Below are positions 54,094 through 61,031 of a stretch of 64,000 nt of DNA, piece after piece. The notes under the pieces were generated by a model. The model was not told where the DNA came from. It did not search any database and saw only the letters and a list, made by a program, of their open reading frames with translations. Made by a program: the position numbers and the translations under genes. This DNA comes from a phage. The stretch lies in the sequence record NC_100372.1; one strand, given 5' to 3'. Each line of letters begins with the position of its first letter. Within the stretch, counting starts at the first letter, position 1.

Positions 54094-56871
54094 TTAGTGA
54101 CAATCGCCCCAGTTACGACCGCACAAGTATTCACCTGTGATCTGGAACGGAACGCCCATCATTTTAGAAGCCTGCCAGAAGCAATGCACCACCATTTCGC
54201 CCACAGGGCTCCAGATAAGTTCAAGCTTTCCGTCATCGTTCAAGATAGGATCGTATACCGTATTTCCGTCCTTGTCAACCACTTCGTTTCCGTCCTCATT
54301 TTTGCGTGCCTTTTTGTACTTATGACCGTCGAACACATGAAGTTTAGCCTCTTGTTGGGCTTTAAATGTTTCCAGCTCTTCAATTGTGTCGAAGGTGTAT
54401 ACAGTTTTATACTTAGGGGTGTCAGGCACTTGAAGCTGATATTCGTCATGGTAATAAATAATACGACGAACACCTTCATCATACCATCCACGCTTCACCA
54501 TTTGGTGGTGCATGAGGATTCCGACCAAGTCGCACAACGATGCACCGCCATTTTGCTGATATGCATTAAGCAAAGAGTGTTTAGAGCGGGTCCAAATGGC
54601 ATGCCCGTCAAAAGAGTAGATAAATTTCTTACCTGTTGCTTCCCAGAATTTCTCCAGATCCTCTTTGCGCCCCTTAAGACCTGGGTTGGCATCCCAGAGA
54701 GCATCAATTACTCTCTGCCCCAGTTCTGGAGAGATATCCAGCATATCTGCAACTTTATCTTTTTGTGCCCCATACATAACCCCATACGTGATAGGTTTAC
54801 CATCGTTACGAGACACCTCTCTACCTGCTACTTTTGTATATGCCTCAGCATTGTTTTGGTGCGCGTCCCCGTTACTTACAACATCATAATACAGACCGTT
54901 GTCAAACTCAAAGGCACCCCAGGCCCCGATGAGCTGCTCTAAGTTGGACCCGTCAATACCGATCTCAAAGTATCCAGGAGGAACACCCCACAGACTACGC
55001 ATCTCTTTACCCATAACCACTTTAGGAGATGGTTTAGGCATGTTTGCACAAATACTATGTTTCTGTCTGGAAGTGTTTGTTAATCCAGAACTTTTAGCAG
55101 GAAGCTTGTGGTCAATCTTCAAACGTGGATGATTAAGAAGACCAGTATCTACCTTATCTTCCTTGATTGGATCAAGGACCGATCTGCGGTTTCGCAATGA
55201 TAACCACAAAACGATATCTTTAGCCATCTCTCCGTTCAATTTTTCAAGATTCGGGCACAGGTGTCCAAACGTATCTTTCAGTTGCGGAGAAGTAATAAGC
55301 GCTCTGGCTTTTCTACGTATCTTCCCAAACACTTCCTTTTTAATCCTTTCTGAGTTAGGGAAGCTTCGGAACTTGTGCACGGTTGTCTGGAACTTAGCAT
55401 CGGTTTTGTTCCAGAAGTTGATAATCAGGTCACAATACTCTGACTCTAAAAGCTCGTCCATATATGCATATACTCGTGCATCAACATCTGCATCAGGTAG
55501 AGCTTTCTTCTTGCTGTCTTTAGTTACATCCTTAGTTCTCCACATTGTCGGAAGCCAACCAGCACTGATCAGGTATCGCTTAATGTCGTCCTGGTTGCTG
55601 ATTTTCATAGGTATCTTGCAGTCCGGCATTCGCTTCTGCTGTAGATCACTTATTGCCTGATCCATTAGCTCTTTAGGTAAAGGTTGTGGTGTGGAGGTGC
55701 CCTTAATATAGCCTCTCAAGAAATCAGCCATCTTATCGGGGTCTTTGCAGCCCATCTCTTCACACCATTTTATCCCCATCTTGCTGACATCTCCTGTGGA
55801 GGTAAATGCTCGCTTAGGCGGGGCTTTGAACTCTAAAGCGCTCATGTCCACAGGATAGCCAAGCTTATCTTTTAACCATTTCCAACCATTATTGGAGATT
55901 GTCCCATCTTGGTTAAACGGCTTTTCAGGGAACTTGGGCCGCTGAGACATTGACAACTCTTTTAAAGGAAGTTGAGGTTCAACACGATCAGCGATCTCTT
56001 TCATCCACGCATCGCAACGGTCCCGTAAAGCAATAGCCCCATCTATGTCGAAATACACCCCCTGTCGAGCCTGCAGCTCCATCAGAAAGTGCTGTAACAT
56101 GCCTCGGCGTAATGCGTTCTTCCAGGTGATTTTCTTGAAGCCTTTCGGCTTCTCTTTGGCAGGATCGTACATAAAGTTCTGCATGTCAGATTTGCCGTAG
56201 AATACACCTTTTGATTCCGCTACCAACTCCTTCCAGAGCAACTCCTGGATGATAACGTCCTCGAACACACGATCCACATACTTCCACAGAGGAAGCTCAC
56301 GCCAGTCATCGATTTGAACTTTCTGGTTACCAAGGGCATAGCCCCATGCCATAAGGCCATGAGGTCCAACAGGTTGCATTTTCTTGGTAACTGGATTAAA
56401 TACTGCGTCCGGACAACCTTTTGGCAAAGGGCGGTCAGGCCACAAGATTCGACTCATTGCTAACGTATCGAACAGATTAACCTGGTGGTCGTTGATAGTC
56501 CCCATGCATTTAGGATCACGGAACATATCAAAATGAATACCGGATAATCTCTCCATCAGCATAAAGTCGTAGCTGTAGCAGTTATGACAGTTCAAAGCTG
56601 TAGGTGACCAGTCTGAGTTGCCTGTAAGCCAGCCTTCCAACTCTGAAAAATCTGCTATGCGAGCCTCAAAATCTGTATAAAGGGTCTTCTTTGCCAGAAT
56701 GAAGTTCTTAGCTTTCTCCACATCCTCTTCAGAGTAGTGTGTGCGGTCATTTAGAGGAAGGAACAGCATAAAACGGTTCTTATTCAGCTCTTTAAACAAA
56801 CCGCAGTGATAATAAAGATCTGGGTCTTCCAGCAGGCCAGAGGCCTCAAAATCGAACGACCACATGCTCAT
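54094..56871 (-). CDS. Family A DNA polymerase with N-terminal 3-prime to 5-prime exonuclease domain
   Basis: Exo I FDFEASG; motif B KPITYGVMYGAQ; motif C YYHDEYQLQV. Confidence 0.85.
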   Translation of the reverse strand: MSMWSFDFEASGLLEDPDLYYHCGLFKELNKNRFMLFLPLNDRTHYSEEDVEKAKNFILAKKTLYTDFEARIADFSELEGWLTGNSDWSPTALNCHNCYSYDFMLMERLSGIHFDMFRDPKCMGTINDHQVNLFDTLAMSRILWPDRPLPKGCPDAVFNPVTKKMQPVGPHGLMAWGYALGNQKVQIDDWRELPLWKYVDRVFEDVIIQELLWKELVAESKGVFYGKSDMQNFMYDPAKEKPKGFKKITWKNALRRGMLQHFLMELQARQGVYFDIDGAIALRDRCDAWMKEIADRVEPQLPLKELSMSQRPKFPEKPFNQDGTISNNGWKWLKDKLGYPVDMSALEFKAPPKRAFTSTGDVSKMGIKWCEEMGCKDPDKMADFLRGYIKGTSTPQPLPKELMDQAISDLQQKRMPDCKIPMKISNQDDIKRYLISAGWLPTMWRTKDVTKDSKKKALPDADVDARVYAYMDELLESEYCDLIINFWNKTDAKFQTTVHKFRSFPNSERIKKEVFGKIRRKARALITSPQLKDTFGHLCPNLEKLNGEMAKDIVLWLSLRNRRSVLDPIKEDKVDTGLLNHPRLKIDHKLPAKSSGLTNTSRQKHSICANMPKPSPKVVMGKEMRSLWGVPPGYFEIGIDGSNLEQLIGAWGAFEFDNGLYYDVVSNGDAHQNNAEAYTKVAGREVSRNDGKPITYGVMYGAQKDKVADMLDISPELGQRVIDALWDANPGLKGRKEDLEKFWEATGKKFIYSFDGHAIWTRSKHSLLNAYQQNGGASLCDLVGILMHHQMVKRGWYDEGVRRIIYYHDEYQLQVPDTPKYKTVYTFDTIEELETFKAQQEAKLHVFDGHKYKKARKNEDGNEVVDKDGNTVYDPILNDDGKLELIWSPVGEMVVHCFWQASKMMGVPFQITGEYLCGRNWGDCH

Positions 56872-56929: not shown

Positions 56930-59008
56930 TTAAAAAGGTGTTTCGTCGTCTTCAAAACCAGGAACGTGGTTAGAGGACGGATCATCATACTGAAGATCTT
57001 CCTGTGTGTCAACAGGGTTAACAGCAGGGGTTATAACCTTATCAGCCACAACCTTGCCCACAGGTGTTTCTACAACTGCATGCTCCTGATCCTCAAACAT
57101 AGCCTGAGGTCTCCAAACAACCTCCCCACCTTCCCCATCTGTAAACATCTGCATTTCTTTGTCCCAGTACCAGTTGCTGGCATCATGGAACTTGCCTGTG
57201 TGGGGATCCATAACTAGAGTGTCTGCAATACCTAAGGTTTTTGCTGGGCGGTTTTTAAGACCTACCAGTCGGACACGTCCACGGGAACGATCCACCATCT
57301 CCTCTGCCTCTACCCCGACAACCACCCAGCTAAGTTGCTCCAATCCGGCACTACCGCGAAGGTTCTCTTTTCGTACAGGGTACCAGAAAGGTAACGGATT
57401 TCCATCCTTATCCTTCGGAGGTACAATCTCTGTGCGCTTCAGGTGAGCAATCACCAAGATAAACACATTAAACTGCTTACAGAACGCGGCTAGTTGAGTC
57501 ATAGCCATGTCAAGTTCTTTGCGCTCATCCTTAACATTAAGCCCTGAAATCACCATAGACAAGTGATCCAGCACAATGTAACGGCAGTGATACAGGCACA
57601 CCATTTGTTTAAGCTTAGTGATCAGCTCATCTACAGGAATGGAGCCGAAATGCTTGAACACTTTGATTTTTCCGGCCTTGGCCCAAGATTGATGAATCTC
57701 AGCGTGCTCCTGATCGGTCAGGAACTGACTGGGGTCTTCAACAAACTCTTTAACATCAAACCCCAGCTGGTTAGCGTACAGAGAGTTGATTGCTTCCTCA
57801 GGATCCTCTTCAAGGTGAATCAGGCACAGGCGATCATCCTCTTCATAATCATCAGCTTTAGGGCATGTTGGATCCATCAAGTATCTTGCAATGCAATGTT
57901 CCAGCTTCTTGGCTACAGTTGTTTTACCACCGCCAGACGGGCCTGTCAGCATCATCAAGGTGCCTTTGTGGAGTCCTTTCAGCATCTTCTGCAGTTTAGG
58001 GAACTCTGCACTAATATCCACGCCATTGGAAGTCTTCTTACGAAGAGATTCAATGGAGAAGTCTTCTAAATCAGATACAGCATCAGGCACATATTTGACT
58101 GGGTGACGGAACATGTTGACAATATCTTCCAGCTTTTTAGCCTTCAGCATGTCACGAATATCTTTTACACCATCAGGGTCGTTTACCTCACCTGGGTATT
58201 CCACGTGGTAAACGTTGTCAGCCATCAAAAATGCTGCGATATTATGCGTAGCTTCAACACCTTTGATAACGTGTTTTTGCTTCTCTACCTCGTTAGCTGC
58301 ATCGTTGTCCATTGCAAGGACTACTGTTCCGTAGCTACGGATAAATTTCTCATTGTTCGCAAAAGTGTCTACGGCGTTTGCACACCCGCAGTTAATTCCG
58401 ACAAAAGGCAGGCATGGTTTTCCTGCCAGATCACCGCCGTTGATAACTGCATCAATCCCATCCTGGACTTCTTTAGCCCACTGCTTCACCTTCGCCGGGG
58501 CTTTAGCATTGGTGAGAATTCCTTTTACTTGTACCTGATATGCAGCCTGCCACGCTGCAATAACATCTCCTTCCCCCTCACAAACGTTAATCTGCTTGCG
58601 GTTGTTGGAGGATGCACACAGCTTTTGACCAAACATCTGGGAGTTGGCCTTTACTATGCCGACAACCGAGAAATGGCCCCTTTGCTCTTTAGGGATTGTC
58701 CAGTCACGCTTTTTAAAGCCAGATAGATTACCGTAGCGGTCATAATACGGAAAGTAGGTGGCAGTAACAGTTACGCCATCCTCTTGGGATAGCGATGATC
58801 GTACACCAAAATATTGTGCAGCCATCAGTCCAATATTTTGTTGTGGAACAGGGACAATTTTAGTGTTTTCTAAAACAGTCTCCACAGTTTCAACTTCTTT
58901 TTCATCACGATAGTCTCGTTTCACACTTCCCCCACTTTTATACTTAGTTGCTTTCGGGTTTGGCTCACCGAAACGGTTGTATGCAGATGCCATGAATTTA
59001 CTGCCCAT
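56930..59008 (-). CDS. DNA primase/helicase fusion (TOPRIM primase + DnaB-like helicase, T7 gp4-like)
   Basis: TOPRIM VCEGEGD and VLAMDNDAANE; Walker A TGPSGGGKTT; Walker B VLDHLS; start at ATG after AAGGAGAAG RBS. Confidence 0.8.
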   Translation of the reverse strand: MGSKFMASAYNRFGEPNPKATKYKSGGSVKRDYRDEKEVETVETVLENTKIVPVPQQNIGLMAAQYFGVRSSLSQEDGVTVTATYFPYYDRYGNLSGFKKRDWTIPKEQRGHFSVVGIVKANSQMFGQKLCASSNNRKQINVCEGEGDVIAAWQAAYQVQVKGILTNAKAPAKVKQWAKEVQDGIDAVINGGDLAGKPCLPFVGINCGCANAVDTFANNEKFIRSYGTVVLAMDNDAANEVEKQKHVIKGVEATHNIAAFLMADNVYHVEYPGEVNDPDGVKDIRDMLKAKKLEDIVNMFRHPVKYVPDAVSDLEDFSIESLRKKTSNGVDISAEFPKLQKMLKGLHKGTLMMLTGPSGGGKTTVAKKLEHCIARYLMDPTCPKADDYEEDDRLCLIHLEEDPEEAINSLYANQLGFDVKEFVEDPSQFLTDQEHAEIHQSWAKAGKIKVFKHFGSIPVDELITKLKQMVCLYHCRYIVLDHLSMVISGLNVKDERKELDMAMTQLAAFCKQFNVFILVIAHLKRTEIVPPKDKDGNPLPFWYPVRKENLRGSAGLEQLSWVVVGVEAEEMVDRSRGRVRLVGLKNRPAKTLGIADTLVMDPHTGKFHDASNWYWDKEMQMFTDGEGGEVVWRPQAMFEDQEHAVVETPVGKVVADKVITPAVNPVDTQEDLQYDDPSSNHVPGFEDDETPF

Positions 59009-59792
59009 CAATTCTTCTCCTTACTACAGGCTCGTTTGCTAAGAATACAGCTCTTGCCCAGCCACGTGGTGTAAGGCTTCGAATCATCTTCGTCCTTGCA
59101 CTCTTTCCACCTAGCTTAGCGTGTTGCATGGAATAACCACTAACCACATCAACTATTTGCGGGACAGGTTTTGTGGCGGGGATTATAAATCCATTTCCTA
59201 TCCAACCGCAAGTTATTTTTGGGTAGGCATCACGTGGAGCTATAAATTCAGGAAACCATGGGTTTACATCATCCTCTGGTAAATACCCACCATAATCCGA
59301 AGGATGAAAACGGTAATCAGGTTTTCGCCACAGTGTTGACATAACTCCTACAGGGTTCTCTACATGCCACGGGCAATCGTAAATCTCTCCCAACTCTTCT
59401 GCAACCCGAGCATCTTTCACAGCATTAATTTGGATCAGAGGATCCTTAGCCAGCTTTTTCTTAAAGTGTGCAGCTCCGGATACTGCTAAATGCGTGCACG
59501 GAGGAAATGCAAGAATAAAGTCTGGAGCTGGATACATGCAAAAAGTTTCTTGAGGGAACCATGGATCAATCCAATAATCCACATAGTGAATGTTAGGATG
59601 ATCTGTTATCACCTCTGCATAACTACCGTGGTCAGCACCTTCTGCATTAAAGCACAGGCACAGGTACCCAGCTTTTGCCCAGTCAATAACTGCACCACCA
59701 GACCCGTCAAATAGACTCCACACAACACCTTTGTGGTAGTGTTCTTTGTAGATAAATTTCAATTTGCTGTCTCCTAATGCAAAAAGCCCCAC
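58998..59792 (-). CDS. DNA cytosine-5 methyltransferase-like protein (tentative)
   Basis: SLFDGSGG (motif I-like), AFPPCTHLAVSG (PC motif-like), HVENPVG (ENV-like); only 264 aa, so assignment is tentative. Confidence 0.4.
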   Translation of the reverse strand: MGLFALGDSKLKFIYKEHYHKGVVWSLFDGSGGAVIDWAKAGYLCLCFNAEGADHGSYAEVITDHPNIHYVDYWIDPWFPQETFCMYPAPDFILAFPPCTHLAVSGAAHFKKKLAKDPLIQINAVKDARVAEELGEIYDCPWHVENPVGVMSTLWRKPDYRFHPSDYGGYLPEDDVNPWFPEFIAPRDAYPKITCGWIGNGFIIPATKPVPQIVDVVSGYSMQHAKLGGKSARTKMIRSLTPRGWARAVFLANEPVVRRRIDGQ

Positions 59793-59808
59793 CCTTTCGG
59801 GCAGGGCC
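59781..59808 (-). terminator. Intrinsic terminator with GAAA tetraloop, near-identical to the one at 49632
   Basis: GCCCUGCCC-GAAA-GGGUGGGGC + UUUUU on the minus strand; coordinates may be off by 1. Confidence 0.6.
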
Positions 59809-59813
59809 TAGTG

Positions 59814-60296
59814 TTAAACCCGGATACCTATTGTATACTCGGTGGATACCAATGTCAAATCTAAATTTAAAATTTCTTGCATCTCATAGTATGCATCCAG
59901 AGTGAGATACATTTCCCCATCCTCTTCTACATACTTGTCGAGATGTTTGAGGCACTTTGGATAACTATCAAGGGCAGCTTTTAAGCACTCAAACTCCGTG
60001 CTGTTGATGAATCCTTCCATCTTAGCTACCCGTTCTGGAGTAACAATAGCACTGTAGTGAGATTTAGCTTCCTGAATGCAATGGGTCCAAGCATCAACTT
60101 TCTCTTCAAAAAGCCCGAAGAATTTCTTTTTGGTGAGTTTCAGATTTTTTAAGTGCTTAAGCACTCGGTTGCCGATTACAGCCACATCACGAAACTTAAA
60201 GATAACTTTGTCGATATCCTCGCGGCCTATTTTCACAAAGCAGGCCTTGCACATCTCGGGAGCAGCGTAGCCTACCTTCCACATAAAATCTGACAT
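59814..60296 (-). CDS. Hypothetical protein
   Basis: ORF; start verified as ATG. Confidence 0.5.
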   Translation of the reverse strand: MSDFMWKVGYAAPEMCKACFVKIGREDIDKVIFKFRDVAVIGNRVLKHLKNLKLTKKKFFGLFEEKVDAWTHCIQEAKSHYSAIVTPERVAKMEGFINSTEFECLKAALDSYPKCLKHLDKYVEEDGEMYLTLDAYYEMQEILNLDLTLVSTEYTIGIRV

Positions 60297-60704: not shown

Positions 60705-61006
60705 TAGAAACCTCCTGTCTCTTCAGCAAATGCAGCCGCTGTCGTCGCTGCATCCAGATAGGACTCTAGTTCACGTGCTGCACGTTTGTAAATCGAGTGG
60801 CGCAGATCATTTGGTAACTGGTGAAAATCAACCTCTTCTCCGTTGTGGTAAACATGCACATCAGTAATCTGTCTAAATCCATAATAATCAACATCAGAAT
60901 CACGGCACTCCGGATCTGGCAACTGGACAACTGCCTGAGCTTCTACAGTGAGCATATCGTCAAGTTCGAAATCGATTTCAAAAGTGTATGGTTTATAACG
61001 CTTCAT
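60704..61006 (-). CDS. Hypothetical acidic protein
   Basis: Coupled ORF. Confidence 0.5.
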   Translation of the reverse strand: MKRYKPYTFEIDFELDDMLTVEAQAVVQLPDPECRDSDVDYYGFRQITDVHVYHNGEEVDFHQLPNDLRHSIYKRAARELESYLDAATTAAAFAEETGGF

Positions 61007-61031
61007 CGTTTGGTGCTCTCCTCAGTTTTGT

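Follow-up and report, generated by a model that had tools for sequence, protein, structure and literature searches.

Among the described enzymes closest to the protein considered here are the DNA cytosine-C5 methyltransferases, such as M.HhaI, and CmoX, a phage homolog of these enzymes which forms 5-carboxymethylcytosine. The cofactor choice of CmoX is set by an arginine (R350) which replaces N304 of M.HhaI, its motif IV reads SPPC-S, the CmoA protein of Escherichia coli suffices as donor of carboxy-S-adenosylmethionine (Cx-SAM), and 4257 CmoA genes are present in the contigs of 5615 candidate CmoX sequences (PMC12783734). N-to-K changes at the N304 slot convert M.MpeI and M.MedI (PMC12015181). 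A smaller homolog is encoded in the phage sequence NC_100372.1, of which a stretch of 64,000 nucleotides (the window) was analysed; this derives from a Vequintavirus, an rV5/FV3-like myovirus of E. coli, and matches phages B9-1 and S127 BCL3 at 98% identity across 3 kb. The label 'DNA (cytosine) methyltransferase' is already found in many records, and while the broad kind of protein is thus known, the architecture represents a distinct, uncharacterised and widespread variant. The reading favoured here, with moderate confidence, is that the gene specifies an orphan DNA cytosine-C5 methyltransferase dependent on S-adenosylmethionine (AdoMet), which has been reduced to the large catalytic domain, has a relaxed target and plays an anti-defence role. 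Residue numbering throughout follows the 254-amino-acid (aa) protein starting at the TTG codon at position 59762:

58998..59762, minus strand: coding sequence of the minimal C5-methyltransferase homolog, 254 aa plus stop codon, ortholog of rV5 gp226

The AlphaFold2 model of this protein (predicted local distance difference test score, pLDDT, 88; predicted template modelling score, pTM, 0.88) has the topology of the C5-methyltransferase large domain, and the top 34 matches in a Foldseek search against the PDB were all to DNMT3A/B. Structure prediction thus yields the methyltransferase fold suspected in the original prediction, in which a small C5-methyltransferase-like gene had been proposed from the sequence of the window. 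The figures listed for the solved structures were 13.4 for DNMT3B, 12.7 for the phage carboxymethyltransferase CmoX (8YF3), 12.2 for both the methyltransferase of prophage CP-933R (3G7U) and DNMT3A, 10.7 for M.HhaI and 10.6 for M.HaeIII, with approximately 187-194 of the 254 residues aligning to the catalytic domains of the solved enzymes. Comparison of the family with a profile of CmoX and M.HhaI using hhalign gave a probability of 82-87% and expectation (E) values of 1e-5 to 4e-6, significant over motifs I-IV only, and C89 fell on the catalytic cysteine (C81 of M.HhaI, the query sequence of which is identical to PDB 10MH; C98 of SpCmoX). In a greedy hhalign run, which is unreliable past motif VIII, the ENP of the family was placed on the ENV of CmoX and M.HhaI, and 'DYGG' on the 'YGV' which precedes the canonical QxRxR.

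The motif I-like FDGSGG, the PC motif and the ENV-like motif noted earlier do occur, as FDGSGG, PPC and ENP-V, in the canonical order of motifs I, IV and VI:

59694..59711, minus strand: motif I-like FDGSGG (residues 18-23), the putative AdoMet-binding loop, aligned to motif I of M.HaeIII, DNMT3B, M.HhaI and CmoX
59646..59648, minus strand: N39, at the end of strand beta-2 (the motif II position), placed by hhalign on the Asn of the canonical 'NE'
59493..59507, minus strand: motif IV, F-P-P-C-T (residues 86-90), with the Cys89 codon at 59496-59498 and T90 in the slot of M.HhaI Q82
59349..59360, minus strand: motif VI, E-N-P-V (residues 135-138), with E135 as the equivalent of the ENV glutamate on the basis of conservation and the greedy hhalign run

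Conservation was counted among cluster representatives down to 30-57% identity, with 74 full-length relatives as a second set. The cysteine of the PC motif, on which the original prediction hinged, is conserved in the homologs, with C89 retained in 111/119 sequences and invariant in the 74 full-length relatives, and it is flanked by the likewise conserved F86 (103/119) and T90 (102/119). In motif VI, where the canonical Val is replaced by Pro-Val, E135, N136 and P137 are present in 116/120, 110/120 and 118/120 sequences, respectively. The N39 position is occupied by Asp in 106/118 divergent relatives and by Asn in the enterobacterial-phage clade, and around motif I the wider family retains only the L17, G22-type and W28/G32 positions.

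The gene is real and under purifying selection, differing from its rV5 counterpart by 32 synonymous and five non-synonymous changes (ratio of non-synonymous to synonymous substitution rates, dN/dS, 0.04). Fold, motif conservation and selection together support the C5-methyltransferase interpretation. Relatives were found by tblastn in 1503 of 50,697 phage records, including those of Vequintavirus, T1-like Drexlerviridae and Webervirus, RB49-like Krischvirus, Phapecoctavirus, Seunavirus, Vibrio phages and Arthrobacter phages, and an exhaustive HMMER scan of 1.84 billion cluster representatives recovered 1014 clusters (50% identity) at E<=0.001. On this scale (~1500 phage records) the family is among the commonest 'methyltransferase' annotations of enterobacterial phages. 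The unusual smallness of the protein, which had drawn attention to it, is a trait of the family and not the result of truncation, since the median length among the best 150 of the 1014 cluster representatives is 233.5 aa. The profile search suggested earlier returned PHROG 757, named 'DNA methyltransferase' by annotation, at E=6.3e-87 (residues 10-261 of the 264-aa open reading frame (ORF) against positions 3-226 of 247 in the profile). The window protein has no match in Pfam or NCBIfam, including none to PF00145 even at E<=10 (gathering threshold 22 bits), and a sequence search of the PDB gave non-significant matches only. Four of the 74 diverse relatives match PF00145 at E<=0.01, over profile positions 4-94 of 324 (motifs I-IV) only, and three members score above the curated cutoff of this family, again over motifs I-IV.

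The protein differs most from the canonical enzymes in the region beyond motif VI:

59235..59291, minus strand: family-specific loop insertion GGYLPEDDVNPWFPEFIAP (residues 158-176, 19 residues), between motifs VII and VIII
59202..59234, minus strand: motif VIII-like block RDAYPKITCGW (residues 177-187), strand beta-7
59100..59198, minus strand: sole sequence at the position of the target-recognition domain (TRD) and motif IX (residues 189-221, 33 residues), made up of variable columns
59049..59093, minus strand: C-terminal conserved block TKMIRSLTPRGWARA (residues 224-238), leading to the last helix, motif X-like by topology

Between the end of beta-7 (G189) and R228 lie 38 residues, compared to ~131 in the equivalent part of M.HhaI (171 to G303), and there is indeed as little room for a TRD as had been anticipated; in effect, the protein lacks the whole small domain, with both the TRD and motif IX. 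Confidence in the model is lowest at residues 201-230 (pLDDT 61-76). The preceding insertion (consensus GGYLPxDDxHPxFPxxIxP) is highly conserved and modelled with high pLDDT, without regular secondary structure, and is a candidate DNA-contact element replacing the recognition domain. Motifs VIII-X, which the original prediction had singled out for inspection, are thus only partly represented: the motif VIII-like strand is present without QxRxR, motif IX is missing and the motif X-like block lacks the Gly-Asn. Within the motif VIII-like block D178, Y180, K182, T184 and W187 are conserved in >90% of the sequences, and R177 and K182 may correspond to the canonical motif VIII arginines. The C-terminal block (T-K-x-I-R228-S-L/A-T-P232-R-G234-F-A-x-A-V) is marked by R228 (114/120), P232 (112/118) and G234 (112/118) and runs into the last helix of the model (residues 233-251). 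The slot of the canonical motif X Gly-Asn reads R228-S229 (I-R-S-L-T-P); no match was found when a profile of the C-terminal part only was compared with the PDB, and neither the assignment to motif IX or X nor the register of R228 is fixed by profiles.

In M.HhaI the methyl pocket is lined by Q82 and G303-N304; as these are replaced here by T and R-S, the cofactor or the transferred group may differ. The enzyme could use the covalent Cys-C6 mechanism of the methyltransferases to deliver a non-methyl group to cytosine in DNA, most concretely a carboxymethyl group from the carboxy-SAM of host CmoA to give 5-carboxymethylcytosine, although this is judged quite improbable. Motif X reads G-R350-M-V-P-P in SpCmoX, taken from the S-B43 genome, and I-R228-S229-L-T-P232 in the family, which brings the near-invariant R228 to the R350/N304 slot or one residue N-terminal of it, and both have a small residue at the Q82 position, T90 in the family and Ser in CmoX. 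The changes Q82A and N304A enlarge the cofactor pocket of M.HhaI. The role of R350 in CmoX and the sufficiency of host CmoA (PMC12783734), together with the N-to-K conversions (PMC12015181), provide precedents for such a switch. However, the placement of R228 on N304 is not established, with a better hydrophobic match putting S229 there, the motif IV sequence is FPPC and not the SPPC which defines CmoX, and the CmoX proteins are full-size (~372-385 aa) and all match PF00145. Furthermore, no homologs of CmoA or the CmoY ligase were detected by tblastn (SpCmoA and SpCmoY as queries; E<=0.01) in the window and 85 related loci, 811 kb in total, although host CmoA could supply the cofactor. Relatives are also found in Arthrobacter phages, while cmoA occurs chiefly in Gram-negative bacteria. 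Membership of CmoX was rejected on the FPPC motif and the absent CmoA/CmoY context, and the protein is not filed as CmoX for these reasons as well as the unfixed register and the Arthrobacter phage relatives. The loss of the recognition domain, combined with the Q82 to Thr and G303-N304 to Arg-Ser replacements, leads to a further proposal, given only a slim chance, of a natural 'open-pocket' C5 transferase which places a non-methyl group on cytosine with little or no sequence specificity. If true, ~3% of sequenced phages would carry 5-carboxymethylcytosine or a similar mark without encoding a cofactor synthase themselves, with carriers including the common rV5-like, T1-like and RB49-like coliphages and the Klebsiella Webervirus, and a different transferred group would alter the behaviour of phage DNA in sequencing and host-range engineering.

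Several points weigh against the favoured reading of a minimal, relaxed-target C5-methyltransferase. The small domain which canonical enzymes require for DNA binding and base flipping is missing, the pocket residues are altered as described above, most of the wider family has a degenerate motif I of the FDYTG type, in which only one Gly is conserved, and the profiles give no confident alignment beyond motif VI. No experimental characterisation of any family member was found in the searched literature, and the existing annotations rest on BLAST or HHpred only: the 'cytosine methylase' of the Vequintavirinae genome paper was inferred from HHpred and the annotation in the Webervirus genome record from BLASTp similarity. 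In the BASEL study, no simple relation was observed between the methyltransferase genes of Drexlerviridae and their resistance to restriction, while the Vequintavirinae were 'exceptionally susceptible' to restriction-modification (RM) systems; furthermore, rV5 DNA is cut by XbaI. On account of the BASEL findings and the XbaI cleavage, wholesale cytosine replacement or dense methylation is unlikely, and such modification as there is must be sparse, confined to a motif or of no consequence for the RM systems tested.

The coliphage groups which most often carry the mini-methyltransferase, the Drexlerviridae and Vequintavirinae, are also those against which type III Druantia was strongest in a recent preprint (bioRxiv 10.64898/2026.05.12.722862), and the paper draws no causal link. 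The joint mention in the Druantia preprint of 5-methylcytosine and a methyltransferase in Drexlerviridae has no connection to this gene. A paper on 5-hydroxycytosine was likewise set aside as irrelevant, the chemistry there being performed by thymidylate-synthase homologs.

The gene neighbourhoods bear on how a protein lacking a recognition domain might find its target. Comparison of the Vequintavirus, Hanrivervirus, Webervirus, Krischvirus and Phapecoctavirus loci showed only the methyltransferase to be in common (48-58% identity). Among 80 environmental IMG/VR viral loci (L007-L086), which encode mini-methyltransferases 40-58% identical, the commonest neighbour family occurs in at most 19/80 loci; frequent neighbours include an integrase, PF17338 GP88, the small terminase, ThyX, a cell-wall hydrolase, a primase-like protein and an SNF2 helicase (10/80). 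A copy on an E. coli chromosome is located in the nin region of a lambdoid prophage, beside a Dam-type methyltransferase and with no nuclease gene nearby. With no partner travelling alongside it and a prophage copy without a nuclease gene, the mini-methyltransferase behaves as an orphan, horizontally mobile early gene. A conserved partner supplying DNA recognition was rejected on the same grounds, namely the five lineages with only the methyltransferase in common and the absence of any neighbour from more than 19/80 loci.

These data also bear on the suggestion that the protein performs no stand-alone methylation, and either needs a separate specificity or DNA-binding partner from phage or host, as in a split C5-methyltransferase-like system, or is a non-catalytic binder or decoy which sequesters AdoMet or occupies DNA or a defence protein. 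Such a role, which is considered decidedly unlikely, would be in keeping with the missing recognition domain and with the lack of a link in BASEL between phage methyltransferase genes and restriction resistance. It is opposed by the absence of a conserved neighbour across the five lineages and 80 loci, which argues against a phage-encoded partner in cis, and by the near-invariant Cys89, Glu135 and motifs over 30-57% identity and the dN/dS of 0.04, which are hard to explain for a binder. Non-catalytic derivatives do appear to exist at the margins of the family, and are counted in favour of this suggestion. Five remote relatives (P0263, P0265, P0228, P0269 and P0189; 30-38% identity; 284-414 aa) carry long N-terminal extensions; in P0263, P0265, P0228 and P0189 the PPC Cys is replaced (PPS, PPG or PEY), and in three the ENP Glu is replaced as well (ANP, SNP, LNP), while P0269, with the same long extension, keeps both the catalytic Cys and Glu. 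To judge by their sequences, the Cys/Glu-altered relatives look like catalytically dead derivatives.

Other family members are fused to further domains. In P0253 (348 aa) the mini-methyltransferase is joined to an HNH_2 endonuclease domain, and in the BFVD entries A0A6J5SE15 and A0A6J5NPY6 the fold forms a domain of giant phage proteins, of 1397 aa (annotated 'Helicase/UvrB N-terminal') and 1126 aa (uncharacterised), reminiscent of the large anti-restriction methylase-helicase proteins. The HNH_2 fusion and the giant proteins, one with a helicase annotation, hint at DNA as the substrate.

In the window the gene is abutted, as noted in the original prediction, by a primase-helicase ORF of 693 aa (56930..59011), and the two overlap by ~11 nucleotides (nt) if the primase start is as annotated in rV5. 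Only in Vequintavirus are the two genes adjacent; in the Drexlerviridae helicases are encoded nearby. The adjacency brings into consideration an active C5-methyltransferase that works not on defined sequences in duplex DNA but, for example, on single-stranded DNA at the replication fork, RNA or tRNA, or free deoxycytidine nucleotides, an alternative which is regarded as unlikely. The TRD and motif IX are absent, and single-stranded DNA requires neither base flipping nor a TRD; the overlap and co-transcription with the primase-helicase in Vequintavirus, the helicases near the Drexlerviridae genes, the SNF2 helicase in 10/80 loci and the occurrence of the fold inside giant phage proteins, one annotated as a helicase, are consistent with such a substrate. 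M.EcoGII, which methylates single-stranded DNA and RNA nearly as well as duplex DNA, provides a precedent (PMC5778455). However, no helicase adjoins the gene in Krischvirus, Phapecoctavirus or the E. coli prophage, and one does so in only 10/80 environmental loci; an obligatory helicase association is thus unsupported across the family. Bulk methylation of nucleotides would result in heavily methylated (5-methylcytosine) DNA, a poor fit with the XbaI cleavage and the RM sensitivity of the Vequintavirinae.

The upstream region of the gene includes the following signals:

59770..59773, minus strand: GGAG ribosome-binding site, read from the sequence, 7 nt before the TTG start codon
59784..59809, minus strand: terminator-like hairpin with an 11-bp stem and GAAA loop, followed by TTTTT, found by sequence scan
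59830..59858, minus strand: sigma-70-type promoter TTGACA-17-TACAAT, matching 11/12 consensus positions, equivalent to 'promoter P231' of rV5

The 264-aa ORF at 58998..59792 on the minus strand is present as originally described; the GTG at 59792 does not, however, hold as the start codon, and the TTG at 59762 is favoured instead. The start was reassigned because the GTG is situated in the 3' arm of the hairpin (59809-59784; RNA folding energy -23.1 kcal/mol), the GGAG precedes the TTG, rV5 gp226 is annotated in RefSeq from the TTG position (254 aa), and P0002, a homolog with 79% identity, begins with Met at the position aligned to the TTG; the TTG at 59762 is almost certainly the real start. 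The predicted promoter lies upstream of the hairpin, within the 3' end of the preceding ORF. The order of elements is unusual, with the promoter followed within ~20 nt by a hairpin with a T-run, and then by the ribosome-binding site and the start of the methyltransferase/primase-helicase operon (59784-59858, minus strand). The hairpin may be a terminator of the upstream gene's transcript, an attenuator or a 5' stabiliser.

Further differences were observed between the window and related genomes. The rV5 gene for gp230 (a 441-aa adenine-methyltransferase-like protein; L001:7014-8345), which lies between ORF234 and ORF236, is cleanly absent at 61003-61012 of the window, where no homolog was found by tblastn and the blastn breakpoints confirm a clean absence; the mini C5-methyltransferase is therefore the only methyltransferase of this module. 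The DNA polymerase is encoded in the window by one continuous ORF of 925 aa (54094-56871, minus strand), whereas rV5 (L001:1-447 region) has two 'DNA polymerase' coding sequences split by two small ORFs, with ~290 nt extra, which could reflect an insertion or mobile element or an annotation artefact. This rV5-like region of an E. coli phage is matched by sixteen records named 'Campylobacter phage' (host C. jejuni), of which MG065644, MG065690, MG065654, MG065666 and MG065662 are ~92% identical over all 3 kb; these are probably mislabelled or contaminant rV5-like coliphage genomes. Among the environmental loci, the cysteine-rich PF17338 GP88 is encoded ~1.5 kb upstream of the mini-methyltransferase in 26/80 loci (clusters of 18 and 8) and ThyX is present in 14/80, and this neighbourhood may define a nucleotide or DNA-modification module in that phage group. 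In two of the 80 loci (L062:4953-5345 and L049:4237-4692) a search with SpCmoX revealed a second C5-methyltransferase-like segment (24-26% identity across 163-189 aa), lying within ~0.8-1.4 kb of the mini-methyltransferase, and both types can thus co-occur.

Returning to the C5-methyltransferase reading, the gene would be transcribed by the host RNA polymerase, along with those for the primase-helicase and DNA polymerase, starting at the consensus sigma-70 promoter, and its translation would be coupled to that of the primase-helicase. We infer AdoMet as the cofactor, which would be held by the motif I loop and the beta-2 Asn/Asp, and DNA as the substrate, in which Cys89 (PPC) would attack C6 of the target cytosine while Glu135 (ENP) would protonate N3; the methyl group would then be moved to C5 and beta-elimination would free the enzyme. 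As the TRD and motif IX are replaced by ~33 residues, target selection would have to rest on short loops, the candidates being the conserved insertion (residues 158-176), the variable loop at residues 200-215 and the catalytic loop, and a very short or relaxed target is therefore predicted. Oligomerisation as in DNMT3 may aid recognition. The presumed role would be the marking of replicating phage DNA, which would thereby be spared by some of the restriction systems or other DNA-sensing defences of the host.

The carriers of the family include rV5-like, T1-like and Klebsiella phages which are relevant to therapy, and knowledge of the target bears on the prediction of phage sensitivity to restriction and modification-dependent (McrBC-type) defences. 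If active, the protein would represent the smallest known DNA C5-methyltransferase architecture, a natural experiment on the minimum protein needed for cytosine flipping and modification, and possibly a compact tool enzyme for epigenetic marking or footprinting.

With M.EcoGII the analogy is functional only. This prophage-encoded orphan methyltransferase has no sequence specificity and is thought to provide broad anti-restriction cover (PMC5778455), but it is an N6-adenine enzyme of the beta-class with different chemistry and no homology beyond the general methyltransferase fold, and it was rejected as a precedent for a TRD-less enzyme since it retains a putative TRD (PMC5778455). SpCmoX (PDB 8YF3; PMC12783734) has 372 aa, a TRD, a match to PF00145, the SPPC motif and neighbouring CmoA and ligase genes, which the phage protein is without. 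The solved C5-methyltransferase catalytic constructs in the fold searches are all larger, those of DNMT3A/B having 263-291 aa and those of the bacterial enzymes 324-388 aa. The DNMT3A/B catalytic domains share 13-15% identity with the phage protein and retain a recognisable TRD loop; the DNMT3 enzymes come from eukaryotes and have additional domains that regulate them, and oligomerisation of the phage protein is only a proposal. Compared with the PF00145 enzymes (M.HhaI, M.HaeIII and the CP-933R methyltransferase 3G7U; 324-348 aa), the phage protein, at 254 aa, is ~75-95 residues shorter, and the family has PCT in place of PCQ, ENP in place of ENV and RS in place of GN, adds the conserved 19-residue insertion before motif VIII and carries ~33 residues where these enzymes have the small domain.

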